A DNA stretch of 64,000 bases from positions 11,171 to 75,170 of the forward strand of contig JBMORX010000002.1 in assembly GCA_049322615.1 (NCBI GenBank), in the 5' to 3' direction. The notes beneath the pieces are model-generated. The model made no database searches. It saw only the letters and a program-made list of their open reading frames with translations, and was not told the DNA's origin. Both the position numbers and the translations under genes were made by a program. The stretch is from Patescibacteria group bacterium (lineage in GTDB: Bacteria > Patescibacteriota > Microgenomatia > CAYGWK01). Positions 28,489 through 44,962 of the stretch are shown here, in pieces (within the stretch, counting starts at the first letter, position 1; the number at the start of each line of letters is the position of its first letter).

Positions 28489-30706
28489 CATATTGTTGAT
28501 AAAGAATCCAAACACTCCCGCAATAATCATAACCACAGGCAGGACTGCAGGAATCAGACTGATCAGGGTTTGCCTTACACCCTTCAGTTCCGCAAGAGCC
28601 ACAATAGTGATAAGCAGCTTTCCAACGAACAATATCCTCGCTCCAACCCTCACATTCTCCCGTTTCCGTTCCGCTATTTTTCTTAATTTTTTTGGCTGCC
28701 GCCTGCAAGGAAAGATCTAGCCGACAGCGATCCATTAAACTGTATCCGGACATTATCCCTTGCCAGGTTTTCTCTTCAAATTGCATTGGTCCCATAACTG
28801 TTGTTCCCAAGCAAAGACCGGTGGCGGCGCAGGTATCATAACAATAACCGCGCTGAAGTTCTTGGGTACTTGCGCCGATCCACCAATTAGGAGTAGTAAA
28901 CTTTTGGATTTCCTCCTCGGTATAAGACCAGGTTCCACCTGCTTCAACCTGGGAAATAGCCATCAAAAGACCCACAGGCACACACTCCTCGGCGGAGATT
29001 TTGGCAAAAAGATCTTTTAACCCTTGAGATTTAACAGAAATGGCACTTGGAGGAAAGGCTCTCCAGCGAAGGGGATTTACCGGCAAGACAAATGCCCCGG
29101 CGGTGGTCATGACGATAAAGAAAGTTAGAGCAGATATTCCTCCAAAGATAGCCAGGACCAAAGCTGTCACTGGCGCGGTTGAGGCAGGAAGAGTAAAAAG
29201 AGTAGTAAAAAAAGAAACTGTTCCAGAAGCAAAACTAACCAGAGCACCACTTACTGCTGAGATAATTCCTGGAAATGTCATTGCTGCTAGAGAACCAAGA
29301 CCTATGGTTAAAAGCCCGAGACCCAAGGAAATACCACCAATTGAGATAATAAATGCCCCGGCGGCAGCCAAAGCCGCAGCAATCGCCATGGCAATATTCT
29401 TTTTTTGCTCTTTTAATTTATTCCAGATAAATTTAGCCGCATCCAAAACTAAAGAGGCAACTGCCAAAACCTTGCTAACTACTGGTTCAGGTAAGGCGGC
29501 TAACCCCAGTTTTGTTAAAATCCAAGACGCGGCTTTTTTGATTGCCAGAGCCCCAAGTTTGGTAAGAATTGGCTTGACTGCCTTTTGATAAACAGCGCTT
29601 TTAACTCCTTCCAAACTTTTTGCTTTACCAAAAGACAAGATTCTGGTAAAAGTATCAGGAAGACTAAAATGAACGACGGTTTTTTCTGGGGCAATTTGTA
29701 TTTTTTGATAAAACCGAAGGTTAGTTCCAAAACTGTTTAGAGTTTGCCTTAAAGTCCAAGAATAGCCTGTTTTTTTTGCCCAGACAGGAAGTTGGGAAAG
29801 TCTGGGAAGGTAAATGTTTATTTCCGGTAAAAAAATTTGCCTCCGACCAGTAATTTTTGAGAACTCATGGTAATTTTTAAGAATTCCCGCAAAAATTCGG
29901 TGAGTATTTTCAAAGGTTTCAAAATCTTTTCTTTTTTTCGTAAGTTTTAAGAGTTTTGGATGGTCAAGAGGAAGTCCAGCTTCCTGGAGGGCGGTGAGAC
30001 TTGCTTCGATGTCTTTGGCAGTTAGACCTTGATGAAGCATTTCTCTAAAAATGGAAACCGCCTGTCTTTCTGGAGGAACTTTTTTGGCGGTTTCGATTAA
30101 GAGTTGGTCGCCAGCAATTTTGTCGAAAACCTGAATAGTTTTAACGATTGGCGAAAGGGCAACCTTTTTGGTAAAAGAAAAAGCGGCCCGAGGCTCAAAG
30201 ATAGTAAAAACAGGGATAAAGGCAACCCTTTCTTCTTCGCTTGCCAGTTTTTCGGCAGCTTCAGAAGGTAAAGTTTCGATTGGTGGCGGAACGGCTTTTT
30301 TAATTGGCTTTGGAGCAGGACCAGCCAGGGGAACAACAATTTTTCTTTTAGCCAGTCTTTCTTGTTCTTTTCTAAATCTTATGACATCTTGTTTTGCCTT
30401 TTGGAGAATTCTTTCTTCTTGCTCTTTACCTATTTTTAATTGTTCAACTAGGATATCTAAATTTTGAGGAATATTTGGAGCTGGCTGTTCTGGGGGTTGG
30501 AACAAAATCTCCTCAAGTTTTGATTGAACAGCAGATAAAAATTCTGGATCATCAGGTTTAAGACTAATTCCTAATTCTTGGGCAAATCTGACAACCTCCG
30601 CAAAGGCAGTTTTTCTGTCGATTTCTTTAATTGTCCAGGTTTTCTGCTGAAGAGCGTAGACTAAAATTTGGAGCTTTTGATATCTCTGGCGAAGTTCTTC
30701 GTTCAT
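28478..30706 (-). CDS. T4SS-associated membrane-anchored peptidoglycan hydrolase (PrgK/TcpG/VirB1-like): coiled-coil N-domain, multi-TM segment, Cys-rich SLT/lysozyme-like C-domain
   Basis: The C-terminus 'MAISQVEAGGTW...GPMQFEEKTW' resembles a lytic transglycosylase (E..GLMQ). A central hydrophobic block spans several helices and there are many Cys residues in the C-terminal domain. Confidence 0.4.
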   Translation of the reverse strand: MNEELRQRYQKLQILVYALQQKTWTIKEIDRKTAFAEVVRFAQELGISLKPDDPEFLSAVQSKLEEILFQPPEQPAPNIPQNLDILVEQLKIGKEQEERILQKAKQDVIRFRKEQERLAKRKIVVPLAGPAPKPIKKAVPPPIETLPSEAAEKLASEEERVAFIPVFTIFEPRAAFSFTKKVALSPIVKTIQVFDKIAGDQLLIETAKKVPPERQAVSIFREMLHQGLTAKDIEASLTALQEAGLPLDHPKLLKLTKKRKDFETFENTHRIFAGILKNYHEFSKITGRRQIFLPEINIYLPRLSQLPVWAKKTGYSWTLRQTLNSFGTNLRFYQKIQIAPEKTVVHFSLPDTFTRILSFGKAKSLEGVKSAVYQKAVKPILTKLGALAIKKAASWILTKLGLAALPEPVVSKVLAVASLVLDAAKFIWNKLKEQKKNIAMAIAAALAAAGAFIISIGGISLGLGLLTIGLGSLAAMTFPGIISAVSGALVSFASGTVSFFTTLFTLPASTAPVTALVLAIFGGISALTFFIVMTTAGAFVLPVNPLRWRAFPPSAISVKSQGLKDLFAKISAEECVPVGLLMAISQVEAGGTWSYTEEEIQKFTTPNWWIGASTQELQRGYCYDTCAATGLCLGTTVMGPMQFEEKTWQGIMSGYSLMDRCRLDLSLQAAAKKIKKNSGTETGECEGWSEDIVRWKAAYHYCGSCGTEGCKANPDQSDSCSPACGYDYCGSVWILYQQYASQ

Positions 30707-30708
30707 TT

Positions 30709-32568
30709 TTAGGTTAATTGTGGTTCTACAGGTTTAGTTTGTGAAATCGGTTCCTGAACTTGTTCTTGTTGCATTCTTAATAATTCTTCTGGTTTTGAAG
30801 TAATCAGCCTATGTTCATCAGGTGAGGCAATAACTTGAATGGCGACGTGATTGGCGCCGGCAAAAAATAACCCTTCGCCAACATTGGCCGCCAAAAGTAA
30901 ATGTTTTTCGCCCTCGGAAAGATAAAAAACCTGAGCCACCTTATCAATGGCGGCCGGTGACTGTTTCATTAAAACCTGAATTGAAGAGTTGGTGACAATT
31001 GCCTTACCGTAATCAGAGCCCAAAAAATCCTCAACATCCTGGGTAGTCGTCGTTAGTCCCAGGAAGTATTTTCTTGCTCTTTTGGCAATTGAATATAAAA
31101 AGGTGGCCGAGTCCGGATATCTCATTAAATACCAAGCCTCATCAACAATAAGAATTCTTTTTTTCATTTCCTTTCTTATTTTTGTCCAGATAAAGTCAAG
31201 GATTATAAACATGGCAATTGGACGGAGAGCCTCCTCCAGGTTTTTTAGAGAAAAAACCGTAAAAGTATTTTTGATGTCAATATTTGACCTTTGGTCAAAA
31301 ATACCCACAAATGAGCCTTTGACAAATTTTTCAATTCTATCCGCCAAACCCTTGGCTTCCGGCTCTTCCATGCCAATTAAAGCTTTGTATAAATCCTCCA
31401 TCAAGGGCGGTTCATTTTTTTGGGTCGCCGGTTCAGGAGTGATTCCCTTCATTTTGTAGGTTAAAACCAGGGCGCGATCTAAGGTTGCTTCTTCAGAGGC
31501 AGAGAGTTGTCCCATAATGACTTTAAAAAGTGAATGAAGAGATAAAATTTTCAAGCCCAGTTCGTTTTCGCCTTCCTCATAAACGGTTGATAAATCAAAG
31601 GGATTAATTTTAGCCGGTTCATTAAAGCCAAATTGAATGTATTCGCCGCCAATCGCCTGGCAAAGAGTTTTGTATTCAGCCTCTGGATCAATTATTAGAA
31701 TTTCCGTGCCAAACATCAAGGAGCGCAGAGCCTCAAGTTTGACCAGGTACGATTTACCGGATCCGCTTTTGCCAAAAATCACCGAGTTGGCATTCTCTAA
31801 AGTAAACCTGTCAAAAATAATTAAACTTCCGTTGTGCTCGTTTAAGCCATACATTATTCCCTCATTAGCCGTTAGTTCCGAGGAAGTAAAAGGAAAGGTT
31901 GAAGCCAAGGAGGTGGTGTCCATATTGCGGGTAATTATTAGTTTGTCAACGCATAAAGGCAGAGTGGTCTTAAAGCCATCCTCCATCTGGAGGGTTGCGT
32001 GTTTTGAGATAATTAAAAGGGCCCCTAAGGCGGACTCAACTTGTTTTGAAAGATGATTTAACTCCTCCAGGGAGTCAGCCGGAATAGTGATATAAAGACC
32101 AAACTGGAAAAAGCGTTCGATTCCCTTAACCAGCTGTTCTTGTAAAGCCCGGGCATCCTCAAGTTTGGCTTGAGTTTGAGGGTCAATAATTTTCCCCTGT
32201 TGAATATCGGTTGAGATTTCCGCCTCCATTTCCGTAATTTTTCGGCGCAAATCGTCAAGGACCGTCTTTCCCTCAACCGGATAGACAAACATCGAGATAT
32301 CAAGCGAATGGTCAAAGGTGATTAGGGGCGAGAGCCAATTGGCAGAGACAAATCTTGGATAGCCGGCGACAAAAAGAGTCCGAAAATAGGTATTGTTGAT
32401 TTTTATATAGTCAAAATCAACCTCAATTGCCGAAGGAGCAATAACATCTTGGACGGAGACCATTCCTTGACCAAGCCTAAGACCGCTATCGGAAATTGGG
32501 ATTTTTACTTGATTTTCTCCTTGACCGTTTGTCCGCTGATTGGCGGATTTAAAAAATGGTAAGTTCAT
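30709..32568 (-). CDS. Type IV secretion ATPase VirB4/TraC/PrgJ-like (C-terminal ATPase part)
   Basis: 'IFGKSGSGKSYLVK' is the Walker A and 'RILIVDEAWYLM' the Walker B motif. Confidence 0.7.
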   Translation of the reverse strand: MNLPFFKSANQRTNGQGENQVKIPISDSGLRLGQGMVSVQDVIAPSAIEVDFDYIKINNTYFRTLFVAGYPRFVSANWLSPLITFDHSLDISMFVYPVEGKTVLDDLRRKITEMEAEISTDIQQGKIIDPQTQAKLEDARALQEQLVKGIERFFQFGLYITIPADSLEELNHLSKQVESALGALLIISKHATLQMEDGFKTTLPLCVDKLIITRNMDTTSLASTFPFTSSELTANEGIMYGLNEHNGSLIIFDRFTLENANSVIFGKSGSGKSYLVKLEALRSLMFGTEILIIDPEAEYKTLCQAIGGEYIQFGFNEPAKINPFDLSTVYEEGENELGLKILSLHSLFKVIMGQLSASEEATLDRALVLTYKMKGITPEPATQKNEPPLMEDLYKALIGMEEPEAKGLADRIEKFVKGSFVGIFDQRSNIDIKNTFTVFSLKNLEEALRPIAMFIILDFIWTKIRKEMKKRILIVDEAWYLMRYPDSATFLYSIAKRARKYFLGLTTTTQDVEDFLGSDYGKAIVTNSSIQVLMKQSPAAIDKVAQVFYLSEGEKHLLLAANVGEGLFFAGANHVAIQVIASPDEHRLITSKPEELLRMQQEQVQEPISQTKPVEPQLT

Positions 32569-33290
32569 GGTATTTTTTTCTCCATTGCCGGTTGGACAAA
32601 AGGGGTAGTATATTCCTGACCGGCGGCTAGTTTTTGAAATCCCAAAGAGGGGTTGTAGATATCATAAAAAAGCTGGATTGCCTCCTGGGTTGAAACCTCT
32701 CTGGTTTTTAAGCCTAAACGGTTAAACTGTCTTGAGAGATGATCGCGTTTTGGATAAAGATTCATTTTTGCCCGTTCTAGAATATAATCTTTGGGATATG
32801 GAAGACCCTTTTTTCTTTGCAAAACCTGTCCCAGCGCTTGGGTGGCGCCAAGCTCCAAAGTCGAAAAGGGGATAACCACATAAAAACTTTTATCCAAAAC
32901 ATTATTTTTTTTAACCGTGTCTTCAACAAATTTTTGGTATTTTTTCATTTGTTCTGCCAAAAGTTTATTTACCTGTTTTGAGATTTCTCCTTCTAAAAGT
33001 TTTAAATAAGAGGTAACGTCCTTTCTTTTTGAACGGATAACAATTTCAATTGGAAAAGTTAAGGAATTCAAAAGGGCAGCATAGGCGAAGATTAAGGCAT
33101 CTTGCTCTTTTTCGGACAGAAGACCAAAGTTAATCGCCGTCGTCGCCAAAATTAGACAGCATGAGCCGTCTTTTAAAATAACAATATTATCTTTAATATC
33201 CTCAATTTCCAAGTGTTCTTGGGTTGAGGCGCGGATGGGAATTTTTAAGGGATCAGGCATAGTTAAATAAGCAAATAAGCAAATAAGCAA
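32565..33290 (-). CDS. VirB4 N-terminal-domain-like protein (split VirB4)
   Basis: 'VILKDGSCCLILATTAINFGLLSEKEQDALIFAYAALLNSL' resembles the CagE/TrbE/VirB4 N-domain. It overlaps the ATPase ORF by 4 nt. Confidence 0.4.
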   Translation of the reverse strand: MLICLFAYLTMPDPLKIPIRASTQEHLEIEDIKDNIVILKDGSCCLILATTAINFGLLSEKEQDALIFAYAALLNSLTFPIEIVIRSKRKDVTSYLKLLEGEISKQVNKLLAEQMKKYQKFVEDTVKKNNVLDKSFYVVIPFSTLELGATQALGQVLQRKKGLPYPKDYILERAKMNLYPKRDHLSRQFNRLGLKTREVSTQEAIQLFYDIYNPSLGFQKLAAGQEYTTPFVQPAMEKKIP

Positions 33291-33368
33291 ATGACAAATG
33301 ATGAATTTGATACTTGAAATTTGTAATATTTGGAATTGATTTGTTTATTTGTCATTTGTAATATTTGT

Positions 33369-34406
33369 TTATTTGGCCTTAATTTCAATAGGTTGAATGA
33401 TCTCGCCCCTAAGAGTGATTTTAACGATATCAAAGTCCAAACCTTCCTTTTCCGTTTCAATATCATAAGTGCCGGAAGGTAAAGGGGTGGCAATCCTGAA
33501 TTGACCAAGTTTATTGGTCCTCAAAGCCCTAACTGGATTTCCTTGTTCATCCCGAATTTCCATAATTGCTCCTTCAACAATTTTTTCCTCCCTATCTTTG
33601 ACAATGCCAACCAAAATATTGGGAATTGAGGGAACTGAAGGAAAGAGAGATTCAGGAGCAAGTTCGGCGGGTTTGGCTTGCCCGCCATAGCCCGGAGGGC
33701 GAAGGCGGGTTGGCTTTAGGAATGGTTTTTGAGGAGTATATCCTGGTATGGGAACAACCTGCCGTGCGTCACCAAAGGTTATGCCGGCGGCGCGGGGTTG
33801 AACTTCCTCAACTGGCGCAAGGCGCGGAGGTTCTTCTTTTTCAACAAAAGGCACACCAAGCCGACGAATCCTTATTCCTGCCGGTTCTTCAGCCTCCTCA
33901 AGAGGCTTTGCCTCAACCTGGATCCCTTGGGGAAGAGAAGTTAGTGAAAAAAGGTTAGTTACTTGCTTTAGGAATCCTTCTTCTTTTTGGTCAAGAAGGC
34001 TTTTTTGAACTGGTAAGGTTTGGAGATATTCAACAAGTTTTCCTCGATCTTGAGTAACGGGAACAGTTACCAGTTTTGACGGTCGAGCAGGTCTTGGTTC
34101 TAAGAATTCTGGTTTTTTTGGTTTTTTTTGCCAAAGAAACTGGGTCGGAGAGTAAACCGCTTTAAAAAAGGCAATTATCCAGGTTTGCAGAGGTCTTTCC
34201 TCAAAAGGTAAAAACGCCATTGCCGCTCCCAAACAACCGAAGAATATGATCAGAGGCCATTTGAAATAAGAAGGCAGACCGGAAGCATAAATAATAAGGG
34301 CAATTACCACCCCTCCGGCAAGTTGGAAAAATTGCTTTAAGGTCATATCGCCAACTAGGCGGAATTCGTAAGATGATATTTGTTGTGGGACAGGATGTTG
34401 TTCCAT
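33369..34406 (-). CDS. PrgI/VirB3-like two-TM protein with a Pro-rich linker and a C-terminal carboxypeptidase-regulatory-like beta-sandwich
   Basis: Two N-terminal TM helices ('GGVVIALIIYASGL', 'LIIFFGCLGAAMAF') and its position upstream of VirB4 match Gram-positive T4SS layout. The C-terminus 'VGIVKDREEKIVEGAIMEIRDEQGNPV...GQFRIATPLPSGTYDIE' is CarboxypepD_reg-like. Confidence 0.4.
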   Translation of the reverse strand: MEQHPVPQQISSYEFRLVGDMTLKQFFQLAGGVVIALIIYASGLPSYFKWPLIIFFGCLGAAMAFLPFEERPLQTWIIAFFKAVYSPTQFLWQKKPKKPEFLEPRPARPSKLVTVPVTQDRGKLVEYLQTLPVQKSLLDQKEEGFLKQVTNLFSLTSLPQGIQVEAKPLEEAEEPAGIRIRRLGVPFVEKEEPPRLAPVEEVQPRAAGITFGDARQVVPIPGYTPQKPFLKPTRLRPPGYGGQAKPAELAPESLFPSVPSIPNILVGIVKDREEKIVEGAIMEIRDEQGNPVRALRTNKLGQFRIATPLPSGTYDIETEKEGLDFDIVKITLRGEIIQPIEIKAK

Positions 34407-34630
34407 GGCACGTAAAAGTTTGCTTAACGTGCCTACCGCGTTTTAATCTAAAGGATTTATTACGCGGTGGGCAGTAATTACCTTTTTATACTAATCTATT
34501 CTAAATTCACTTCAAAGCCAATTCAAGTAGTTCAAAACAGGTCAAACTACAAACAAAATATGGCATGTTAGAAATTAGAAGATTAATTTAGCGAAGTGAC
34601 TAGTGTAAAATTTCAAAAATTAACTAATCC

Positions 34631-34660
34631 TTTACCCTTCTCGTTCCGATATGCTATAAT
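34631..34660 (+). promoter_or_regulatory. Cassette promoter module (TTTACCCT upstream element plus ATATGCTATAATTT -10)
   Basis: tttaccct at 34631-34638 and tataat at 34655-34660. The same module recurs at 36032-36061 and 36797-36841, and a TTACCCT copy at 35344-35350 pairs with 'tgataatat' at 35421-35429. Confidence 0.4.
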
Positions 34661-34673
34661 TTGAATGTGACAA

Positions 34674-35045
34674 ATGATTTACAACAAGAATATTAAAAAA
34701 ATCTTAACCAGTCTCTTAGCTTATAAGCCAGAAAAAGTGATTCTTTTTGGTTCGGCCGCCTGGGGGAAGTGGAAACCGGGAAGTGATCTTGATTTTTTTA
34801 TTATTAAACGAACAAATAAACCGCATACCGCAAGAGTCTGGGAGGTTGAAGAGATTTTATTTGATAAAATGGATGTTCCTGTAGATGTGGTTATTTATAC
34901 GCCTGAAGAAGTAAAATATGCCCAGAGAATAAGAAGTATGTTTATCGAGGAGATTTTAAAGAAAGGGAAGGTACTTTATTTTGAACCGCCAAAAGGCGGA
35001 GAAAAACAAGGTTCTCCGACGAAAGTCGGAGGTTCTTATGGCTAG
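34674..35045 (+). CDS. Minimal nucleotidyltransferase (MNT antitoxin)
   Basis: 'VILFGSAAWGKWKPGSDLDFFII' is present. Confidence 0.75.
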   Translation: MIYNKNIKKILTSLLAYKPEKVILFGSAAWGKWKPGSDLDFFIIKRTNKPHTARVWEVEEILFDKMDVPVDVVIYTPEEVKYAQRIRSMFIEEILKKGKVLYFEPPKGGEKQGSPTKVGGSYG

Positions 35046-35300
35046 CCTTAAGAATGACCTGCGACCAGAAGCGGCGGCTCGCTGGCTTATCTTTTGACTC
35101 TCTGTGCTAAAATCGATAAAGAATTTTTAAAGCTAAAAGAAAACTGTAAAATTTTAGACCCCTATTATATTGAGACAAGATATCCTCTTGATATTCCAAT
35201 TACTTATTCCAAGGAGCAGGTAAAGCAAGCGGTTGATTTGGCGGGAGAGATTGTTGAGTTTGTGGGAAAAAGGATTGGAAAGACTAAGAGAGAAAAATAG
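35039..35300 (+). pseudogene. Degraded HEPN toxin gene (internal deletion or frameshift)
   Basis: A 19-codon ORF 'MASLKNDLRPEAAARWLIF*' overlaps the MNT stop. A separate 68-aa ORF (35094-35300) then carries only the HEPN C-terminal half ('YYIETRYPLD'). The middle helix with the QQAAEK-type motif is missing. Confidence 0.45.
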
Positions 35301-35438
35301 ACCTTAAAATTACTCCAAATCCGCCAAAATATAGCAATTTTCTTACCCTTCTTGCCCTTTGTCCCCCTGGCTTTAATTGGGCTATATTTTGAAGAGAATA
35401 TTTAAATTTTCAGATATTTGTGATAATATTAAAACAGA

Positions 35439-35627
35439 ATGGGAGATGGACTTTTAATCAAAACAACTCGGGATTTTATCGTTGTTAAAATTCCCCGCAA
35501 ATTAATCTACGCAAGGAAAAAGATATCTTTAACCGTGGCAAAGGCTTTGGCTATTTTTAAGAAAGGCAAAGAAGAATACCGCCGTGGGAAACTTACCCCC
35601 GTTTCTTCCCTGAAAGAGATTTCTTAA
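35439..35627 (+). CDS. Putative antitoxin of the RelE/ParE-like pair
   Basis: 62 aa, 7 nt upstream of the RelE-like gene, preceded by 'tgataatat'. No confident family. Confidence 0.35.
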   Translation: MGDGLLIKTTRDFIVVKIPRKLIYARKKISLTVAKALAIFKKGKEEYRRGKLTPVSSLKEIS

Positions 35628-35633
35628 GAGAAA

Positions 35634-35909
35634 ATGAAAATCTGCCCAATCCGCCTGATTTATCCTACCTCAAGATTTAAACAATCGTTTAAGAAATTAA
35701 CTCCGAAAATTCAGAAATTGGCCACTGAAAAAGATGAAATTTTTCGGAAAAATGCCTTTGATCCAAGACTGCGCACCCACAAACTTAAAGGAAGACTTAA
35801 AAATTACTGGTCTTATTGGATAAACGAAGAATACCGAATAGTTTTTGAGTTTGTCGGAAAAGATATTGTTCTTTACCAGGATATTGGTACTCATGAAATC
35901 TACCAGTAG
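35634..35909 (+). CDS. RelE/ParE-family toxin
   Basis: 'LKGRLKNYWSYWINEEYRIVFEFVGKDIVLYQDIGTHEIY' matches the RelE/StbE C-terminal consensus. Confidence 0.6.
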   Translation: MKICPIRLIYPTSRFKQSFKKLTPKIQKLATEKDEIFRKNAFDPRLRTHKLKGRLKNYWSYWINEEYRIVFEFVGKDIVLYQDIGTHEIYQ

Positions 35910-36079
35910 TTTTTAAAAATATTTCCCCTTTACTCTTCCCTCTTTTACTTACTCTATTTCTCTATTGCTTGGTAGCTCGGTCGCCCTGTTGCTCTGTGGT
36001 TTTATTGCTCAGCCGCTTGATTGCTATCTTCTTTACCCTTTTCGCCTTAATATGCTATAATTTACCCAGGAGAAAAAAT

Positions 36080-36643
36080 ATGCCCGACGAGATAGGAAAG
36101 GAAAATATGCTAACTCCAGAACAACAGCCAAAACAAGAAAAAGCCGCACGACTTGAAAGGGAGGAAAAATTAAGAATCGCCAAAGAGAAAATTCCACTGC
36201 TTTTAGGGGTCCTCGAGAAGTTTCGATGTCGAGAATTACTTACCCAAATTAGAGATGAGATTTGGAGATTAGGCGAAGTTTCTATTGCTCCGGAATTGAA
36301 TAAAATTGATCATGATACAGCACTCAAAGCAGAGGTAATTTTAAAAATACAATGGCCGGTTTTCATAGAAAAAGGAAGGAGCTATAATTCTGCGTCAGAG
36401 AGCTTTGATGAATGGGGTGATCATTTAAGCGTACATGAGGAACTTTTAGTGATTAGAGCCGTATATGGAGAGAAAGAGCAAATTTTTATAAAAATTGCGG
36501 ATGATTACTGGGGTCACGAGAAAGGATCTATAATGTCTGCTGATCCAGAAGCGCCCAGAAAACTTGAAGAGCTTTTAATAGAAGACTACCTAAGGCGGTG
36601 GGATGACTTATACAGCAGGAAGAGTCAGCCCCCATACGATTAG
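36080..36643 (+). CDS. Hypothetical protein (197 aa), no recognisable domain
   Basis: The start is set at ATG 36080 behind AGGAG (36068-36072) and the conserved module 'tttaccct ... tataat' (36032-36061). The track N-terminal extension from 35969 is rejected. Confidence 0.45.
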   Translation: MPDEIGKENMLTPEQQPKQEKAARLEREEKLRIAKEKIPLLLGVLEKFRCRELLTQIRDEIWRLGEVSIAPELNKIDHDTALKAEVILKIQWPVFIEKGRSYNSASESFDEWGDHLSVHEELLVIRAVYGEKEQIFIKIADDYWGHEKGSIMSADPEAPRKLEELLIEDYLRRWDDLYSRKSQPPYD

Positions 36644-36894
36644 AGAAAGGCAGAAGATGAAGCTATTATTATTGAGGCCATAATTAATAGAGGCTTCAAG
36701 CCGCCAGAAGGATTTGAATACTTTTTGGATCTTGCAGAAAAAAGAAAAAGATCAATCAAGGGCTAAACGAAAACAATAATTTTTAATTCTTCTATTTTTA
36801 CCCTCCCGCTCTTTTGTCCTTTTACTCTAATATGATATAATTTGAGTGTAGCGAAAATTTCAAACTTTGCTTATAATTAGAGTAGGAGATTCTT

Positions 36895-38658
36895 ATGGCT
36901 GAAATTAGTCCAGAAGCAAGGATGGTGACCCTTCCAGACTACATTGGGGCAGTATTCGAAACGGGAAGGCTCAAGTCTTATGCATACGACTGGACTGAAA
37001 AAAAACACGTGGTTCCCCTTGTAGACGTTTCGAAGGAAGAAGATAGAAACGTTTGGATGTTGGAAAATATGAGGGTTTTTGCCGATGGGACTGTAGCCAA
37101 TCCATGTCTTGGATGGAAAGGGATTATTGATACTTGGTTAACCGACCTGAGAATAGCAGCGACAAGGTCTTCTTCTCCCATAGAAAGGGAAAAACTTAGA
37201 AAAACGGAGATGGATATCAAAGCCATGATGGCTATTTCCGCTTCTGCAAGAGCGATGGAAATGTCAGGGGGGTCAGCGGCACAATATGCAAGCTTTATAG
37301 CCCCAGGGAGGGAGGGTCCAGATTTAGACAAACAAGACTCCTGGAAGGAATTTTTACTTCATAAGGACCCGGAAAAACTTAATCGTGTATTAGAAAATTC
37401 TTTGGTGCAGCACTACCATGAAAGATTAATTGAAGATGCAGGTATTGCTGGTTTGACAGAATGGCACAAGGTAGATTCTGAATGGTATTCCTCAAGTTGG
37501 GTAGTCGATAAAGAAAGGGCTTTTGCTGGCCAATTGATAGAATATTTGAAGTCGGAAAATAGCCTAGACGAATATATTGATAGATTCTTACTAGCAAAAA
37601 AAGATGAAGATGGATTTAAGAGAGATTGTCAGGCAAAATACGGAAAGAAGGATAAGTGTGGAAAAGAACTTAGAGAGGGAATTGGAGATAGGGCAAGATG
37701 GGCGGCAGCCAAACTGGCTTGTGATGCTTTTTTGGTGGACAAATATACTCGGTGGCAATTTCAGCTAGAAAACATGATAGAAAATGAACAAAAAGAAGTG
37801 GAGAAGATGTCAGATAAAACGCAAAAAGAAGATAAATTAAAGGCGTTAGAAGAGCAAAGGAAGGCATTAAAAGATATGAAACCATTTCCGGGATGGGGTG
37901 GAGATCCGTTGCGGGCTGTTCTAGAACCATCCTTTTTGCCTAGGCGGATTAAAAAGGTGTATCGAGAAGAAGATAAGGCAATCTTAGATATGACAGATCT
38001 CGCCTTTCGGCCCGATGATATTTTTAATAAGGAGGAAAAGCTTAAAGGAAAATTGCTGCCAGCATCCATGATTGTTCATCTGAAGGATTATGCTCGTTAC
38101 AGCGACGCCTTGTGGACATTTCTGGGCAATTCTAGGGGAATAGCGATCCCACAATGGACTAAAGATGTAATGGGGAAAGATTTACCGACGATTGCCGAAT
38201 TGCTCGATCAAGTATATGGAGGAATGGATAAACCGAAATCAAAGACAGGCAAACACCCCATTGGCAAACACATTGTTGGGGCAATGATGGCAAGGATACT
38301 CCACTGTAAAGCCCTGGCGATAGCCATCGAGTCTGCTCGTCCAGGTTTTAAAGAAGACCTGACAATACTTTTTGGCGAAACAAAAACAGCTAGACCATTT
38401 TTGGAAATCGAGCAATTCCTTTGGGGCCCCAATCTTGATGCCAAAATGGGGTTTTTGGTTTCGTTGGCAGCCGGAAGAACGAGGTTTGTCTTTAAAGACA
38501 ATGATTTTGAAGCAGAAAAAACATTAAAAGATACGGCAGAGATTTTATTAACCAATGACCAGGATCCTAAAGGAAGGGGGAGAGCAAAAACCTTAAATCA
38601 AATCGGTTTTGTTTTAGATGTTATACAAGCCATAGCTGCCGAGGGAAAACGAAAGTAA
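36895..38658 (+). CDS. Hypothetical soluble protein (587 aa), no recognisable domain; higher GC than its surroundings
   Basis: A long ORF with AGGAG at 36884-36888 and two -10-like boxes (36836-36841, 36872-36877). Its codon composition is visibly less AT-rich than neighbouring genes. Confidence 0.5.
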   Translation: MAEISPEARMVTLPDYIGAVFETGRLKSYAYDWTEKKHVVPLVDVSKEEDRNVWMLENMRVFADGTVANPCLGWKGIIDTWLTDLRIAATRSSSPIEREKLRKTEMDIKAMMAISASARAMEMSGGSAAQYASFIAPGREGPDLDKQDSWKEFLLHKDPEKLNRVLENSLVQHYHERLIEDAGIAGLTEWHKVDSEWYSSSWVVDKERAFAGQLIEYLKSENSLDEYIDRFLLAKKDEDGFKRDCQAKYGKKDKCGKELREGIGDRARWAAAKLACDAFLVDKYTRWQFQLENMIENEQKEVEKMSDKTQKEDKLKALEEQRKALKDMKPFPGWGGDPLRAVLEPSFLPRRIKKVYREEDKAILDMTDLAFRPDDIFNKEEKLKGKLLPASMIVHLKDYARYSDALWTFLGNSRGIAIPQWTKDVMGKDLPTIAELLDQVYGGMDKPKSKTGKHPIGKHIVGAMMARILHCKALAIAIESARPGFKEDLTILFGETKTARPFLEIEQFLWGPNLDAKMGFLVSLAAGRTRFVFKDNDFEAEKTLKDTAEILLTNDQDPKGRGRAKTLNQIGFVLDVIQAIAAEGKRK

Positions 38659-38668
38659 AATTTAGCGA

Positions 38669-40213
38669 CTATTTTTGTGTAGCTGTCTCGGGAATAGGAA
38701 GCTCTCCTGTAGGTGGTCCCGCTACAGCACCGGTGCGCGTGCCGAATCTGGTTGTCCAGGCTTTTCCAATTTCTGTAGCGATTGAAATTCCACGCAATGC
38801 GTATTTTGGGGGTTCTCCCAAGGTTTCTCCAATCGCTGTTCCGTAGGCAAACGGTTTGCCGGCTAAAAATGCCTGAATCATATCAGAAACTTTAGGGGCC
38901 ATTAAGAGAATTACCATACCCATTAGTGGTAAAAGCATTATGCTAAAAAATTGCCAAAAAGAAGGGATGGGTCTGAATGCCTGAATCATTCCTACAAAAG
39001 AAACAATGGTGAAACCAAGCGAGGCCAGAAGAGGCCCTACACCTGGGATAAAGTTAAAGAGAAATATCATCAGCGTGAGAGGATTTGTAAAAAGCCCCAC
39101 AATTCCCACAAAAATAAGATAAGAAGAAAGGAAAAACATGACAGTCATGGTTGGTAGAACGGCTATGTTAGCCAGGGTATTTCTAAACCAATTTCCGGTC
39201 GCGTTACTCCCAGGCAAGACCCCCATCAAAATCAAAAACGGAGCAAAAATTAAGTTTACAATAATCATCGCATAAGCTTTAAGTAAAGTCCAGAGACAAC
39301 GAAGTAAGGCGATGAAAATAAGGATTACCACAATGATTCCAAATAGCCAGCCAACTGGTCCCATCAAAGAAACGGTAATAAGGGCCAAAGCGGGTATAAG
39401 ACTAAAGAAGACGAAATTTGTGTAGACGGTCTTAATCAATAACGGAGCGGAAACCCCAAATACAACGATATTTAGTTTATCTAGAGACTCAAATAACTTT
39501 CTAAATAAATCTCCTAAAGAGCCAAAATGGTTGATGTAAATATCCCTAAAGACTCCATTGATAAGATAAATTACCACATACATTAAATCAATCATAAAGC
39601 CCACAATAGCATAGGAGAAGGTGACGAGAATTAAGCCAATAACAATTCGGGGAAGAGCGGATTGGATAGTGATGACTGCTTGGGGGGAAATTTTTACCCT
39701 AAACATAATGGCGAAACCCATAAAGACAAAAATTAGGACGAACAAAACATAAGCGAGGTTGCGGAAGGCGGTCCAAACTGGAAGGATTTTTTCCATCGTC
39801 TGAAACCCGGCAGTTTGCCCTTGGGCGTAAGCAGGCTGGACAATTCCAAGCCGATTGCCTAAATAAGCCAAATATTGAACTCCTGAAGCAGGGGGAGAGG
39901 CGTAAATACCGGCAATAACCCCCCCCATCGATAGGATAAATCCAGGATTTTTTTGTCTTTCTTCGGCGGTACAACTAAAGCAACCAACAATAGAAGTGGC
40001 AATTGAGAAAGGTACTGCTTTTAGGGTTTCATTAACAAAACTTTGAAGATTCATTTCTGGGCTGGTGATTGCTTGTTCAAACTGGAATTGATAACTGGTA
40101 CCAGGAGTGGAGAAGGCGAGGGCGGATTTGGGCAATATCGCAATATAGCAATAGAGCAATATCGCAAAGAGAAAAGCAAGGCCGGCTTTACTTAAAAATT
40201 TAGGCAGGAACAT
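38669..40213 (-). CDS. Polytopic membrane protein, VirB6/TrbL-like candidate of the T4SS locus
   Basis: 514 aa with about 12 TM helices and a Gly/Ala-rich C-terminal tail. It lies adjacent to the pilin array. The assignment rests on context and architecture only. Confidence 0.35.
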   Translation of the reverse strand: MFLPKFLSKAGLAFLFAILLYCYIAILPKSALAFSTPGTSYQFQFEQAITSPEMNLQSFVNETLKAVPFSIATSIVGCFSCTAEERQKNPGFILSMGGVIAGIYASPPASGVQYLAYLGNRLGIVQPAYAQGQTAGFQTMEKILPVWTAFRNLAYVLFVLIFVFMGFAIMFRVKISPQAVITIQSALPRIVIGLILVTFSYAIVGFMIDLMYVVIYLINGVFRDIYINHFGSLGDLFRKLFESLDKLNIVVFGVSAPLLIKTVYTNFVFFSLIPALALITVSLMGPVGWLFGIIVVILIFIALLRCLWTLLKAYAMIIVNLIFAPFLILMGVLPGSNATGNWFRNTLANIAVLPTMTVMFFLSSYLIFVGIVGLFTNPLTLMIFLFNFIPGVGPLLASLGFTIVSFVGMIQAFRPIPSFWQFFSIMLLPLMGMVILLMAPKVSDMIQAFLAGKPFAYGTAIGETLGEPPKYALRGISIATEIGKAWTTRFGTRTGAVAGPPTGELPIPETATQK

Positions 40214-40287
40214 AATGAAAATTTCTAATTTCTAATTGACCTAATTTTATTTAATTAAACTCTAGCAAAAAGAAAAAGCCCTGTCAA

Positions 40288-42990
40288 TTATTTTTGGTAA
40301 GGCGTTAAAGTTCGAATCAGCCATTGTTTAGCAAGTTGTATCCCCCCAAGATAAGGGAAATAAAATTTTCCAACACCTGGAGTAACGCTTCCTCCAATTG
40401 GAGGGCTGGTATCCTTGTAAGAATAACTTACTTGACTGGCAGCATCGATATCGACAAATTTTGGCACACCATAAGGTCGAAAAATATTAAAAACTCCACT
40501 TAGGGGATTGCCGGTTTGATTCCAAATTGTTCCAAGATAGGGATGGGAAAGGGCAACCCCAATTTGGCGGTTAACGCCTTTTTCCTTTTCCTCATCGCAC
40601 TTATCATGACAAATATATCCTGTTGGGTCGCATTCAATTTCTTTTCCGCAAGGAAGATAGTCTTCGTTGATAAATTGATCAGTGGCTGAAAGAGAAATTT
40701 TGATTGGAGACTGGCAACAAAGATCATCCGCAGGATTGGAATCGGTGATTGCCGTCTTTTGACAGAGGTTAACCGGTCGAGGTTCGGGCAAACCGCAGGT
40801 TGGACCAGGAGGTTTAGGTGGTCCGCCAACAAATTCGCAGCCATCGGCAGTGAGCCTGATAGAATAGGTGGCGGAAAACCGAAAATTTGGGACAACCACA
40901 TCAGAGCGAAAATTAAATGAAGGACCGGAAAGGATATCGCCAGGCTTACCGGCAACGCTCCAAGAAGGAGCAACAAGATTGGTGCAGGCATCTGAATTCG
41001 GGCAAGTATGCCAATATTCTGAACCAATGTGAATGGAAATATCGGATAATCCTGGAGCATTTGTCAGACTGACAATGGCGTTTACGGTATAGGTATTTCC
41101 GCTTTTTGAGCATGAGCCACTGGCTTCAAAGCCTGGATTTGGAGGAGGAAGGTTGGCTTCGGCTAAAGAGGTTTTTTCTCCCAAAACTTGCTTGGATTTT
41201 GCCGGGAAAAGGGTTTTTTGAATGGTGCCCCCGGTTTCATAAAGCCTAGCCACATGGGGAACTTTTTCGATTTGAGCTTTAGGATTTAAGATTTTAAACT
41301 CATCATCGCGTTTTCTGCCGAGATAAGGATTTATATTTCCTGGGGTATCTTCTCGAGAAGCCATTGACATAACCTGCCAGAGATTAAACCATTTGCCACC
41401 ATCGGATTTTTTCCAAGCATCCCATTTTTGAGCATAATCTTTATCGCTTGGGTCAGGAGGAAAATGGCTTATGAGCAGAGAAAGTGTTGCTTCAGCGTCT
41501 CCGGTTGCCCAGGTGCTGACTTTAATCGGCGAAGCGAGATTAAAAAGACTAAAGGCAGTTTTTGCGGCCCAGAATTTTGTGGTATCATTGGTGAAAACGC
41601 AAAAATGGGTGAATTTTGCGGCGCCCTCAACAACCGGCAGACCAATTTTAGTTAAGACAGCCAGAAAGGCGTCGGTTATAAATGGAAAATCCCAGCACAG
41701 TCTTCCTTGGTAATTTAGTTTATAATCATGAATTCCTCCCTCGCCGATTTTGCCTTTGGTGGTGGCGACGGCGCGGTTTACCAGCTGTTTTTTGAGTTGA
41801 TTTTGGTACTCCATTGGCGAAAGTTTCCGCCAGACTCCGGCATGATTAACCCAATCTAGCCAGTATTTTTCGTAATTCTTGTAATATTCATTTGTCCCCT
41901 CAAAATAATCAGCTAGATATTTTTGTTCGTCCTCTTGTTGTTTCTTGCCAACAAAGGGAATTTTTACTTCCGAAGGGTCAATCGTAATCTCTCCTCCCCA
42001 AGTTCTTTCAAGCCAAGGATTGCCCTCGCAGGAAGTGCCAGCCTCTGAACGGCGATATTTTACCGAGTCGGAAACAGTAAAACCTTCGGCACAGGCAGGA
42101 GTCATTTTATTTGTTTGGTTACAGGCATCGCAGCGAACTGGTCTGGAGGTGCGATCGCCAGAATTTGAATAGTCACAAGTTTGTGGCGGTGAAACTGTTG
42201 GTTTTTGAATACTCATTGCTTTAAGAAGAAGTTCACGGGTTTCGGCTGGGAGATCTTTCCACCAGTCATTGAGCCAGCGTGGATCCAAAAAGGTGCCAGT
42301 ATCCCGGATAGCCACTAGGATTTCATTCCCAATTGCTTCACCAATTTTCATTCCCGCCATAAGCGCTGGTAACTCATCTCTACCTGCTTGATTCAACTGG
42401 TTGTAGTAAGCAACAAGAGCAGGATCAACCCGAATATTTTCAAGATAAAGAGTATAGCCAGCAACAGCAATATTGTCGTCAGGAGTGTATTTTAAAGTAA
42501 TGCTATTTTGGTCGGCGTAGATGACGAGAACTTCGTATCCACCGCCAATGTCGTAACCTGAATTCGGCACCAAAATTGCCTGATTAGCGTTAGTGGAAAA
42601 ACCAACTAAAGTGGCAAAATCAGCAGGAGCATCGTCAGGTTTTTTAATACCACCGATTTGATAAAGGCTCGTGACAGAAGGAGCAAGATTCCCCTCAATA
42701 AGAGTATTAAATTGAGGTGCCCTCGGATCAGTTTCATGTTGGAAGTTAATGAAATTCAAATTTCCAGAAATTGACTTATAACCAAGGATATCCAAATTCC
42801 AGTCGGGATTGAGTTCAGAACAACTACTATAATCTGATGAGGGGGTACAGGCAGCGTAGGCGGGGAAAGTAAAAAGTAAAAAGTAAAAAGTAAAAAGTAA
42901 AATTGAAATTACTATATTCGGATTAATTCGGATTATTTTCATTCGGACAGATTCGGATTCAGGGACCAATTTTAAATTGGGTAACGTCAA
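40288..42990 (-). CDS. Large Cys-rich secreted/surface protein (900 aa) with a repeat-encoded signal peptide
   Basis: It has an N-terminal hydrophobic 'ILLFTFYFLLFTFPAYA' and many Cys pairs (CDAC, C..C). It sits between the VirB6-like gene and the pilins. No known domain. Confidence 0.45.
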   Translation of the reverse strand: MTLPNLKLVPESESVRMKIIRINPNIVISILLFTFYFLLFTFPAYAACTPSSDYSSCSELNPDWNLDILGYKSISGNLNFINFQHETDPRAPQFNTLIEGNLAPSVTSLYQIGGIKKPDDAPADFATLVGFSTNANQAILVPNSGYDIGGGYEVLVIYADQNSITLKYTPDDNIAVAGYTLYLENIRVDPALVAYYNQLNQAGRDELPALMAGMKIGEAIGNEILVAIRDTGTFLDPRWLNDWWKDLPAETRELLLKAMSIQKPTVSPPQTCDYSNSGDRTSRPVRCDACNQTNKMTPACAEGFTVSDSVKYRRSEAGTSCEGNPWLERTWGGEITIDPSEVKIPFVGKKQQEDEQKYLADYFEGTNEYYKNYEKYWLDWVNHAGVWRKLSPMEYQNQLKKQLVNRAVATTKGKIGEGGIHDYKLNYQGRLCWDFPFITDAFLAVLTKIGLPVVEGAAKFTHFCVFTNDTTKFWAAKTAFSLFNLASPIKVSTWATGDAEATLSLLISHFPPDPSDKDYAQKWDAWKKSDGGKWFNLWQVMSMASREDTPGNINPYLGRKRDDEFKILNPKAQIEKVPHVARLYETGGTIQKTLFPAKSKQVLGEKTSLAEANLPPPNPGFEASGSCSKSGNTYTVNAIVSLTNAPGLSDISIHIGSEYWHTCPNSDACTNLVAPSWSVAGKPGDILSGPSFNFRSDVVVPNFRFSATYSIRLTADGCEFVGGPPKPPGPTCGLPEPRPVNLCQKTAITDSNPADDLCCQSPIKISLSATDQFINEDYLPCGKEIECDPTGYICHDKCDEEKEKGVNRQIGVALSHPYLGTIWNQTGNPLSGVFNIFRPYGVPKFVDIDAASQVSYSYKDTSPPIGGSVTPGVGKFYFPYLGGIQLAKQWLIRTLTPYQK

Positions 42991-43258
42991 CGCCGGTAAA
43001 AACTTTGATAAATTTTAAGATTAGCCAGATTCCAATTAAGAAAACTAAGCCTAAAATGGCGTAAGTAATAGTTTTTTGGGCAGATTCAGTTGCTTTTGGG
43101 TCTCCGCCTGAAGTTAAATATTTAAACCCGCCTAAAACAAGCATAATAAAGACGGCTAAAACAGCAAAATAGGTAACGATATTTAAAATCCGAGTAAAGA
43201 TCCACTCAAGATCTTTGAGTTGGGCAGGTTGCTTGCCAGTTGGATCAATCCAAGCCAT
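42959..43258 (-). CDS. T4SS pilin-like protein (TrbC/VirB2-like, CPR T4SS_pilin family)
   Basis: TM1, then 'LGGFKYLTSGGDPKATESAQKTITYAILGL', then TM2. This conserved L.GG..Y.TSGGD..K ... A.hGL core recurs in seven paralogs. Confidence 0.55.
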   Translation of the reverse strand: MAWIDPTGKQPAQLKDLEWIFTRILNIVTYFAVLAVFIMLVLGGFKYLTSGGDPKATESAQKTITYAILGLVFLIGIWLILKFIKVFTGVDVTQFKIGP

Positions 43259-43311
43259 TACGAACTTAGTCTACTATGGGAAGAAGCGGGAAGTCAAGCC
43301 CAATTTATCCC

Positions 43312-43328
43312 GAGCAAAGCCACGTCTG
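43312..43328. promoter_or_regulatory. Perfect 17-bp palindrome GCCACGTC-T-GACGTGGC upstream of a pilin gene; candidate operator
   Basis: Seen directly in the sequence. It is GC-rich and dyad-symmetric, with a 1-nt centre typical of dimeric regulator sites. Confidence 0.35.
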
Positions 43329-43336
43329 ACGTGGCA

Positions 43337-43398
43337 AAGCGAGGGACACAAAAAGCACTCCGGTTTACACCCAAGCCTTGCGAGGTGCCTCCGGCGTG
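43337..43398. terminator. Rho-independent terminator downstream of the pilin gene 43403..43783 (bidirectional)
   Basis: 'AAAAAGCACTCCGG...CCGGCGTGCTTTTT' is a ~14-bp stem with one mismatch, flanked by A and T runs on either side. Confidence 0.4.
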
Positions 43399-43402
43399 CT
43401 TT

Positions 43403-43783
43403 TTAAATTGACGGAATCGTCAATTGAAGAATATCAACTCCAAAAAGAGTTTTAATTAACAAAATAATTGCCCAAGCGACAAAGATGATTACTAATCCCA
43501 CTAAGGCGGCGGTAATCTGATTGCGAGCAGCCTCCGTTCCAGCTTTATCGCCACCAGAAACAATCCAACGAATCCCACCGATGACGAGCATAAAGAAGAA
43601 TGCCAAGGCGGCGATAACTAAGATGAACCTGATAGCGGCGGCGACGACTCTTTCAACCGTGATTCCACAGAGAGGTTTCCATTTCTCTTCCTTCGGACAA
43701 AGTTCAATTTGGGCAAAGACCGGAGTGGCGGAAATAGCCATTCCTATGGTGGTTAACCAAAGCGAATTTAATATCTTTTTCAT
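43403..43783 (-). CDS. T4SS pilin-like protein with a cleavable signal peptide and a Cys pair
   Basis: 'MKKILNSLWLTTIGMAISATPVFA' is a signal peptide, followed by 'CPKEEKWKPLC' and 'VIGGIRWIVSGGDKAGTEAARNQITAALVGL'. Confidence 0.55.
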   Translation of the reverse strand: MKKILNSLWLTTIGMAISATPVFAQIELCPKEEKWKPLCGITVERVVAAAIRFILVIAALAFFFMLVIGGIRWIVSGGDKAGTEAARNQITAALVGLVIIFVAWAIILLIKTLFGVDILQLTIPSI

Positions 43784-43843
43784 TCTTTCACCCCCTTTCT
43801 TTACCCGCCGCTCAAGCGCTCTTTAAAGTAAGCTTAGGCGGGC

Positions 43844-44197
43844 TTATTTTAAGATTAACGGTTCTAAATTAATTTGTAAAAGATTTATGCCAAAAAAATC
43901 ACCCAATACTTTCATTATAGCAAAAAGAGTAAAAACAAGCACTAGTCCAATGGCGGCGGTCGTCAGCTGACCTCTTACTTGCTCCATTTGCGCCTTGTCT
44001 CCACCTGAAGTAATATAGCGGATTCCGCCAATGACCAAGTAGAAAAAGGCAGCCAAAGAAGTGATAATTAAAAGAAGGGTAACAATATTGGGTAATATCT
44101 TTCCCAGGAATTCAATTCCAGTCCAGCCCCTAATTTTTTCCGAAAGGGCAGGATTGTAGATTGGGGTTGGCTCTGCGTTTGTCATTTTGTTTGCCAA
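43844..44197 (-). CDS. T4SS pilin-like protein
   Basis: 'LVIGGIRYITSGGDKAQMEQVRGQLTTAAIGL'. Confidence 0.55.
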   Translation of the reverse strand: MANKMTNAEPTPIYNPALSEKIRGWTGIEFLGKILPNIVTLLLIITSLAAFFYLVIGGIRYITSGGDKAQMEQVRGQLTTAAIGLVLVFTLFAIMKVLGDFFGINLLQINLEPLILK

Positions 44198-44568: not shown

Positions 44569-44573
44569 TTATT

Positions 44574-44960: not shown

Positions 44961-44962
44961 AT

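Follow-up and report, generated by a model that had tools for sequence, protein, structure and literature searches.

Is a short plus-strand block that splits a minus-strand type IV secretion system (T4SS) locus an acquired island with a new defence system, or does some of it belong to the locus that it appears to interrupt? The question is raised by a 64,000-nucleotide (nt) stretch of origin-proximal DNA, hereafter the window, from a Patescibacteria metagenome-assembled genome (MAG) of the Microgenomatia (GCA_049322615.1, contig JBMORX010000002.1, positions 11,171 to 75,170), in which a T4SS-type locus comes after dnaA (25402-26808) and dnaN (26993-28108). All T4SS-type genes on either side of the block (28105-34406 and 38669-45274) lie on the minus strand, as the initial annotation of the window had stated, and a listing of the open reading frames (ORFs) confirmed the six plus-strand ORFs that it had placed between the two halves: an MNT gene, a C-terminal fragment of a HEPN gene, a 62-aa ORF, a 91-aa RelE/YafQ/HigB-like ORF, a 224-aa ORF (counted from a TTG) and a 587-aa ORF. 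That annotation took the whole 4-kb block for an accessory island and singled out the last two genes, here called p187 and p587, as the best candidate for an undescribed defence system. The argument turns on these two genes and on those that flank the block:

33369..34406, minus strand: PrgI/VirB3-like gene with a C-terminal CarboxypepD_reg-like domain, leading the left T4SS operon.
36080..36643, plus strand: p187, a 187-aa orphan gene (ATG at 36080, ribosome-binding site AGGAG, in-frame TAG at 36641-36643).
36895..38658, plus strand: p587, a gene for a soluble protein of 587 aa, convergent on the VirB6-like gene across a 10-nt gap.
38669-40213, minus strand: gene for a VirB6-like polytopic membrane protein, ending the right T4SS operon; the invariant convergent neighbour of p587.

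Homologues of p587 occupy the same place in every locus of the family that we analysed. A search of 5.8 billion protein clusters returned 81 homologues, all of them unnamed or 'hypothetical', and an exhaustive profile search of 1.84 billion gave a family of 124 representatives that is confined to Patescibacteria (Microgenomatia; the named sources are Patescibacteria, Woesebacteria, Shapirobacteria and Microgenomatus). We then took the DNA around 14 independent family members, whose identity to p587 runs from 85% down to relatives recovered by profile only (E 1e-4 to 1e-8; P0159, P0164 and P0165), and mapped the window proteins onto it by tblastn. In 14 of the 14 loci the p587 homologue lies on the opposite strand and converges on the VirB6-like gene, the two being 4 to ~160 nt apart (4-28 nt where no small ORF intervenes). 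Its place is always the interval from prgI to the VirB6-like gene, four genes away from virB4, and it is single-copy and never seen elsewhere in the loci. Wherever the left flank is part of the sequence, the PrgI-like gene is syntenic and divergent from p587, and the order reads VirB4(-), TraC-like(-), PrgI(-), a variable gap, p587(+), VirB6-like(-) and, further on, the pilin array(-); dnaA-dnaN often lie upstream. Presence at the same position in relatives had been named beforehand as what would count against an island, and for the 587-aa gene this is what all 14 loci display. With homologues at the same position throughout, the gene is resident and not cargo. Thus p587 is a fixed, separately transcribed member of the origin-proximal T4SS locus of the Microgenomatia, which are ultrasmall bacteria.

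These findings bear directly on the idea that p187 and p587 form an undescribed anti-phage or anti-plasmid system, a sensor with its effector, on an accessory island. Both proteins are unannotated, their genes are adjacent, on the same strand and each provided with a strong promoter, toxin–antitoxin (TA) cassettes lie next door, and in 3 of the 3 lineages with a p187 homologue that gene stands directly upstream of a p587-family gene. However, the presence of p587 homologues at the same position and in the same orientation in every relative examined, with or without p187 or TA cassettes, largely refutes a defence function by synteny, and the neighbours of p587 are T4SS genes rather than defence genes. 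The only defence-related genes beside it are ordinary TA cassettes that differ from genome to genome, and two of the related loci (L007 and L008) have none there. Neither protein matches any family of PADLOC-DB 2.0 (0 families at E≤1). At the block we found no integrase ORF, adjacent tRNA gene or att-like boundary, the nearest tRNA gene being 17 kb off. The GC content of the p587 gene (0.42) equals that of the T4SS genes (VirB4 0.416, VirB6 0.419, the 900-aa gene 0.432), so that there is no compositional anomaly; the statement that the 587-aa gene is less AT-rich than its neighbours holds against the TA genes (0.34-0.39; window mean 0.40) but not against the T4SS genes.

The p187 gene, for its part, is not a conserved partner. 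A search of 5.8 billion clusters gave 2 matches to it, the gene is known from three lineages in all, that of the window included, and it is absent from most p587 loci (L003, L005, L007, L008, L011, L012, L014, L015 and L016). It is an unannotatable ORF, as described, with no match in Pfam, NCBIfam, PADLOC or PHROGs, but its length is 187 aa from the ATG at 36080 (224 aa from the upstream TTG) instead of the 197 aa first given; the 187-aa product is identical to the NCBI MAG protein P0082 ('hypothetical protein ACOZBZ_00880 [Patescibacteria group bacterium]'). Beyond the TAG, 41 further codons, up to 36766, still align with the C-termini of homologues (KAEDxxxxAIIxRGF…), and when the TAG is read through, the E value against P0083 improves from 1.5e-37 to 9.5e-49. 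To judge from this alignment, either a premature stop has cut the copy in the window or the MAG assembly contains an error. The p187 protein is 41% identical to the product of L001 8294-9010. Two possible relationships were considered and rejected: p187 has no similarity to the N-terminal extensions of long p587 forms, from which it might have been split off, and it is not related to the 299-aa upstream gene of L003.

A sensor-effector defence pair is thus highly improbable, and no novel defence system is supported. What is new here is an undescribed orphan-fold family fixed in the Microgenomatia T4SS locus, beside an ordinary TA-bearing hot-spot. From the initial account there remains a TA-bearing stretch inside a T4SS locus together with two unannotatable proteins; the extension of the island to the whole 4 kb and the defence pair do not stand. 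As an accessory island only ~34565-36810 qualifies, an interval that differs or is empty in four relatives (L007, L008, L021 and L001), and the 587-aa gene falls outside it. We are confident that the block is composite, consisting of a cargo hot-spot and a resident 587-aa gene with no defence pair between them. Opposite strand and lack of annotation did not, in this case, mean foreign origin.

The fold of p587 is predicted with confidence and has no recognised relative. An AlphaFold2 model from a 62-sequence alignment reaches a predicted local distance difference test (pLDDT) score of 90.2 and a predicted template modelling (pTM) score of 0.89, and is mostly helical with two small β elements. 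Structure modelling, which had been recommended for both proteins, was in contrast uninformative for p187 (pLDDT 42 from a 2-sequence alignment). No match to p587 was found in Pfam, NCBIfam, PADLOC, PHROGs or PDB sequences (by phmmer and with the family profile), and a Foldseek search of the model against PDB and BFVD gave nothing with E below 0.1; the description of the 587-aa product as a soluble protein with no recognisable domain is borne out. The nearest described counterparts that we considered include helical-rod tethering proteins of the CATCHR/MUN type (Munc13, exocyst Sec6, ZW10 and M-Sec). The protein has no signal peptide and no N-terminal hydrophobic segment, and its single hydrophobic helix (residues 460-478, pLDDT 92-98) is taken, from the model, to be a core helix of a soluble fold and not a transmembrane (TM) segment. 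The family alignment has 14 invariant columns, among them N58, W74, R119, D277, K397 and K472, in which we recognised no catalytic motif. In many members the N-terminus is extended by a long, charged stretch rich in Pro, Glu and Lys, of 250-700 aa in the longest forms, and no Pfam domain was found in these extensions when nine long-form homologues and nine distant relatives were scanned. In one locus (L018 751-1560) the extension is encoded upstream by a gene of its own that matches residues 67-218 of P0162, a case of gene fission or fusion in the p587 family.

Conservation of a gene neighbourhood over deep divergence is a standard argument for functional linkage, and it is on this ground that we hold p587 to work with the T4SS; we consider such a coupling likely. 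The protein would be made in the cytoplasm as a soluble protein and would be recruited to the T4SS through its flexible, conserved basic C-terminal tail. One could instead suppose that p587 is a housekeeping gene, or at any rate one unrelated to the T4SS, which stays in place merely because gene order near the origin is frozen in these compact, reduced genomes. Genes outside the T4SS (prenyltransferase, polyprenyl synthase, SpoIID and dnaN) are indeed also syntenic around the locus. Yet the family is confined to genomes with this type of T4SS and is found nowhere else in the 14 independent loci, its gene lies between two T4SS operons and not at the edge, the slot persists where its occupant has been replaced (see below), and a housekeeping gene would be expected to spread wider than 124 representatives in 1.84 billion. 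We therefore regard frozen gene order as an unlikely explanation.

Replacement of the occupant was seen in loci reached through the VirB6-like family, which is far larger than the p587 family (at least 679 matches). VirB6 homologues of 43-45% identity led to two further Microgenomatia T4SS loci, L027 and L028, in which the position of p587 is held by genes for soluble proteins of 766 aa (L027 11483-13783, minus strand) and 768 aa (L028 11718-14024, minus strand). Like p587, both genes are on the strand opposite the T4SS genes, convergent on virB6 and divergent from prgI. Neither protein contains a Pfam domain or has any similarity to p587 or to the other by BLASTP, phmmer or hhalign. Their N-termini (MSEGEGNKEKPKFIPK…, i.e. 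MSEGE..KPKFIPK; MAGEETYIPKPK…) resemble, by inspection, those of long p587 forms (MSEGEKPRIIIAGK…, MAEEGEGKPKIEIAGKG…). The locus is mosaic in other respects as well: the closest relative, L007, is 85% identical to the window in p587, 67% in the 900-aa protein and 48% in the adjacent VirB6-like protein, and L010 reverses the pattern, with 37% in p587 and 46% in the VirB6-like protein. Recombination or diversifying selection appears, from these identities, to act on parts of the T4SS locus.

A replaceable occupant would be the pattern of an effector slot rather than of a machine part, if the analogy with other secretion loci holds. Effector slots of this kind are familiar from the vgrG/PAAR-linked effectors of type VI secretion systems and from the X-Tfe toxins of the Xanthomonas T4SS. 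The p587 slot shares with them a fixed position flanked by a conserved machine, unrelated large soluble occupants in different lineages and a mosaic locus. It differs in that no toxin domain can be recognised in p587, that no immunity gene lies consistently beside it, that XVIPCD and all other known recruitment domains are absent, and that p587 is well conserved within its own clade (33-85%).

The C-terminus of p587 offers a second analogy. A helix modelled with low confidence (pLDDT 57-64) takes up its last ~30 residues and ends in a basic cluster (…AAEGKRK), and other members of the family end in …GKRK, …GGRRK or …KKR. At least three K/R among the last 5 residues are found in 56% of 62 family members and in 5% of 56 window ORFs, and at least two in 89% of the family members; over the last 10 residues the family has a net charge of +2.3, where whole proteins average -4.9. 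A C-terminal amphipathic helix for membrane targeting was also considered and was dropped, its hydrophobic moment being 0.53 against 0.44±0.12 for window ORFs. Substrates of VirB/D4 T4SSs, such as VirE2, VirF and VirD2 of Agrobacterium, carry positively charged C-terminal translocation signals. As in these substrates, p587 is soluble, without a Sec signal, encoded in the T4SS locus and flexible and positively charged at its C-terminus, a likeness that provides a lead and not evidence of membership; unlike them, it has no R-x7-R-x-R-x-R-like consensus but only a terminal K/R cluster, and it belongs to a monoderm T4SS with no coupling protein nearby.

Because the occupant of the slot is replaceable, because p587 is soluble and lacks a Sec signal, and because its tail is like the signals of VirB/D4 substrates, we tentatively take a translocated substrate or effector of the T4SS as the single most likely role of p587, at odds short of even. 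The more general proposal, that the antisense slot between prgI and virB6, with its lineage-variable large soluble proteins, encodes translocated substrates of the Patescibacteria T4SS, is offered as a possibility to which we give somewhat less weight; slot occupants would then share acidic N-termini of the 'MSEGE…KP+ΦxΦ' type and, often, basic C-terminal tails. A number of observations weigh against secretion of p587. It has no homology to any known T4SS component or effector in Pfam, NCBIfam or PDB sequences and structures, and among the large ORFs of the window we found no VirD4-type coupling protein (T4CP) or relaxase. The positive tail is a weak and non-specific criterion, given that 37% of window ORFs have a charge of at least +2 in their last 10 residues. 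The slot proteins of L027 and L028 were compared with p587 by sequence methods only and might be extremely diverged homologues. Finally, p587 is conserved to a degree similar to that of machine parts (33-85%, compared with 39-49% for PrgI and 30-50% for VirB6), which fits a non-secreted accessory protein equally well.

Such a protein, a cytoplasmic assembly factor, adaptor or regulator that is linked to the T4SS without being secreted, is nearly as likely as a substrate, though we would not presume it either. It could dock on VirB4, the TrsD-like protein or VirB6, could replace missing VirD4- or VirB8-type functions, or could modulate the virB6-pilin operon by convergent transcription, versions that we hold equally tentatively. 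Strict single-copy synteny and the close convergent gap to virB6 in all loci are what one would expect of it, as is conservation akin to that of machine parts. The gene has its own strong promoter, and no terminator-like hairpin was detected in the window between the convergent p587 and VirB6-like genes (38658-38669); their transcripts may overlap as antisense RNA. Moreover, no T4CP was found among the large ORFs of the window, and VirB8 is reported to be undetectable in most Patescibacteria (PMC12102498). Against this stand the non-homologous occupants of the slot in L027 and L028, which are unusual for a core machine part, and the absence from p587 of an ATPase motif, a TM anchor or similarity to any solved T4SS subunit; membrane targeting is unsupported as well, the amphipathicity of the C-terminal helix not being clearly above background.

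If p587 is resident, what is the cargo, and how might it have arrived? Between relatives only ~34565-36810 varies, within the divergent promoter region of the prgI operon and p587. The left edge of this hot-spot is formed by a conserved non-coding element, and the content of the gap differs as follows:

34497..34564, minus strand: conserved 68-nt non-coding element.
L007 (p587 85% identical) and L008: gap empty, with the 68-nt element lying directly against the promoter of p587.
L021: an ORF in which a class-I methyltransferase-like motif was recognised by eye.
L001: between two 68-nt elements, a HicAB-type pair (a small gene followed by that of the HicA toxin), a homologue of p187 and one more gene.
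Other loci: genes for four-helix-bundle proteins of PF05635 (23S_rRNA_IVP), to which L015 adds an ORF whose P-loop motif was likewise recognised by eye.

Small genes of the PF05635 family (bAvd-like four-helix-bundle proteins) recur in or beside the T4SS loci, often just upstream of prgI (L001 6665-7078, L005 7920-8321 and 9420-9800, L008 3186-3599; also L012, L014, L015, L024 and L027). The window itself is without one.

In the window, the hot-spot has gathered selfish or accessory cassettes: an MNT gene with a destroyed HEPN partner, an intact RelE-type pair and the nonsense-truncated p187 gene. The TA genes are these:

34674..35045, plus strand: MNT-type nucleotidyltransferase, the antitoxin of an MNT-HEPN module, apparently intact.
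35038..35097, plus strand: 5' remnant of a HEPN toxin gene, 19 codons (MASLKNDLRPEAAARWLIF*), whose ATG overlaps the MNT stop (ATGGCTAG).
35094..35300, plus strand: 3' remnant of the same HEPN gene, encoding only the C-terminal half (68 aa), in a different frame from the 5' remnant.
35439..35627, plus strand: putative antitoxin of a RelE-type pair, 62 aa, stopping 6 nt before the toxin start.
35634..35909, plus strand: RelE-superfamily toxin (YafQ/HigB/YoeB-like), 91 aa, intact ORF.

The MNT product matches PF01909 (E 9.6e-12; 45.6 bits, cut-off 21) and PF18765 (4.4e-11), and in its translation the GS..DxD motif reads G26 S27 ... D38 L39 D40; its matches to the PADLOC candidate families PDC-S09 and PDC-M05A (~1e-8) come through the generic nucleotidyltransferase domain. 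The HEPN 3' remnant matches PF05168 (E 6.7e-8) over profile positions 63-115 of 117 only, ~45 codons are missing between the two remnants, and the 3' remnant contains no histidine, so that the Rx4-6H catalytic motif is impossible. As in other MNT-HEPN modules the MNT stop overlaps the HEPN start, but here the toxin is, on the reading frames, dead by internal deletion and frameshift, leaving an orphan MNT antitoxin, much as the initial annotation had it. The RelE/ParE-like pair that it had recognised is likewise upheld. The 91-aa toxin scores above the curated cut-offs of PF15738 (2e-7; 31.7 against 30) and TIGR02385 (6e-9; 36.3 against 27.9), matches phrog_1213 (2e-9) and, weakly, solved HigB and YoeB structures, and is preceded by a small ORF as in type II TA systems of the RelE/ParE superfamily; to judge by its ORF structure the pair is intact. 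Unlike the antitoxins of those systems, the 62-aa ORF falls in no described family (Pfam, PADLOC, NCBIfam and PHROGs). The cassettes are ordinary in themselves and chiefly mark the divergent promoter region of the T4SS locus as a cargo hot-spot.

The only repeats at the block are copies of a promoter module, CTTTACCCTT..ATATGMTATAATTT. The 64 kb contain just three of them, at 34630, 36031 and 36811, where 0 would be expected by chance:

34630..34662, plus strand: copy 1, TTTACC-18-TGcTATAAT, ahead of the MNT gene.
36031..36063, plus strand: copy 2, 82% identical to copy 1 over 33 nt, ahead of the 187-aa gene.
36811..36843, plus strand: copy 3, TTGTCC-16-TGaTATAAT, ahead of the 587-aa gene.

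A promoter module of its own had been ascribed to each unit of the block, which is true of three of the four; the RelE unit has only a degenerate sequence (TTGTCC-18-TATATT, 9/12). Ahead of p587 there is a second, proximal TTATAAT at ~36868-36877, which aligns with the single promoter of L007, and the native p587 promoter in that relative (ACCCTT…TATGTTATAATT) is similar to the module that heads the window cassettes. Three of the four units would thus have in front of them a copy of the strong extended -10 promoter native to p587, and we infer that cargo entered the p587 leader with duplication of the promoter, or that cassettes are swapped by recombination between promoter copies. A consideration that speaks against this scheme is that the copies could in part reflect a shared promoter consensus rather than duplication.

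A promoter scan places in the 68-nt element what is likely to be the sigma-70 promoter from which the prgI operon is transcribed (minus strand, 34526..34498, TTGAAT-17-TAGAAT). By alignment it is present in L007, L008, L021 and, in two copies, L001, and is thus kept in the closer relatives; it was not found in loci with a p587 identity <54%. Its 21-nt core, GGTCARACTACAANCAAAATA, has one match in the window against 0.03 expected, and a metagenome scan with this core gave one new informative locus (L021) and one chance match in an AraC-type gene (L023). The two copies in L001 (7120-7200 and 9090-9160) bracket the plus-strand cargo of HicAB and the p187 homologue, and this duplication suggests that the element is involved in the insertion or exchange of cargo. 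A palindromic operator was considered and dropped, the inverted repeat not being kept in L001.

The element could also be read as an origin of transfer (oriT), with p587 as a novel DNA-processing relaxase analogue and the T4SS as a DNA-transfer device. It lies between divergent operons and, in L007 and L008, directly upstream of p587, where many conjugative oriT sites lie, and the p587 family has several nearly invariant Tyr residues and one His-x-Asp. However, p587 has a pI of 6.8 and no DNA-binding domain, conservation of the element is explained by its good minus-strand promoter, the inverted repeat is not kept in L001, no element is found at <54% identity, and in other lineages the occupants of the slot are non-homologous. 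This possibility strikes us as very remote.

Next to the element, the presumed 5' leader of the prgI operon (34407-34490, minus strand) contains two 7-bp GC-rich hairpins, the second of which ends right at the ATG, and no obvious Shine-Dalgarno sequence; a 194-nt stretch here folds at z = -4.65 relative to shuffles. It may be a regulatory leader. Relatives carry an extra gene at this position, and an Rfam scan of 33-40 kb returned nothing credible.

The remaining genes of the locus are those of a T4SS with two operons, the left in the order prgI, TraC/TrsD-like, VirB4 and PrgK-like, the right in the order pilins, 900-aa gene and VirB6-like:

32565-33290, minus strand: TraC/TrsD-like gene, 241 aa.
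30709-32568, minus strand: VirB4-like ATPase gene (PF19044, E 3e-34).
Left operon, minus strand: PrgK-like gene, 742 aa.
Right operon, up to 45274, minus strand: 900-aa gene and six T4SS_pilin genes.

Against Pfam the PrgI-like protein matches PrgI at E 5.3e-5 (24.1 bits, under the cut-off of 27) and CarboxypepD_reg at 1.4e-5; the VirB6-like protein has no Pfam match. About 17 kb downstream of the block, and unrelated to it, lie a tmRNA gene (tag VSNSNVAPVYALA) and six tRNA genes (four Ser and two Arg) at 55599-59694. We note that L009, L011, L013 and L014, in spite of their Microgenomatia-type locus, appear in public MAG records under the titles 'uncultured Gammaproteobacteria bacterium' or 'Atribacterota'; these records are probably mislabelled bins.

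The T4SS of Patescibacteria has been described as MPF_FATA-like, origin-proximal next to dnaA and usually relaxase-less, and is suspected of having been co-opted for a non-conjugative role; VirB2-like pilin arrays are particularly abundant in Microgenomatia, where VirB6 is hard to detect (PMC12102498). The window agrees with that description (Quinonero-Coronel et al. 2025, PMC12102498) in its VirB4, its TrsD/TraC-like protein, its PrgI/VirB3 and its divergent VirB6, and also in a VirB1-like hydrolase, six divergent VirB2-like pilins, the adjacent dnaA-dnaN and the lack of a relaxase or T4CP nearby. In contrast, that account, which is based on profile databases, describes neither the p587 family nor the oppositely oriented gene that separates prgI from virB6, nor the hot-spot of cargo next to it. 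The T4SS is essential in Southlakia epibionticum, a Saccharibacterium (Wang et al. 2023, as reviewed in PMC12857230), and its role in Saccharibacteria has been called 'completely unknown', with delivery of effectors or uptake as speculations (PMC11665869, PMC12857230).

Taken together, our analyses identify p587 as a confidently folded orphan family whose place in the T4SS locus is fixed throughout a whole class. Among Patescibacteria this T4SS is widespread, origin-proximal and essential in the one genetically tractable species, and its substrates are unknown (PMC11665869, PMC12857230, PMC12102498). The p587 family, missed by profile-based surveys, is a concrete candidate for a missing component or a substrate of this system.

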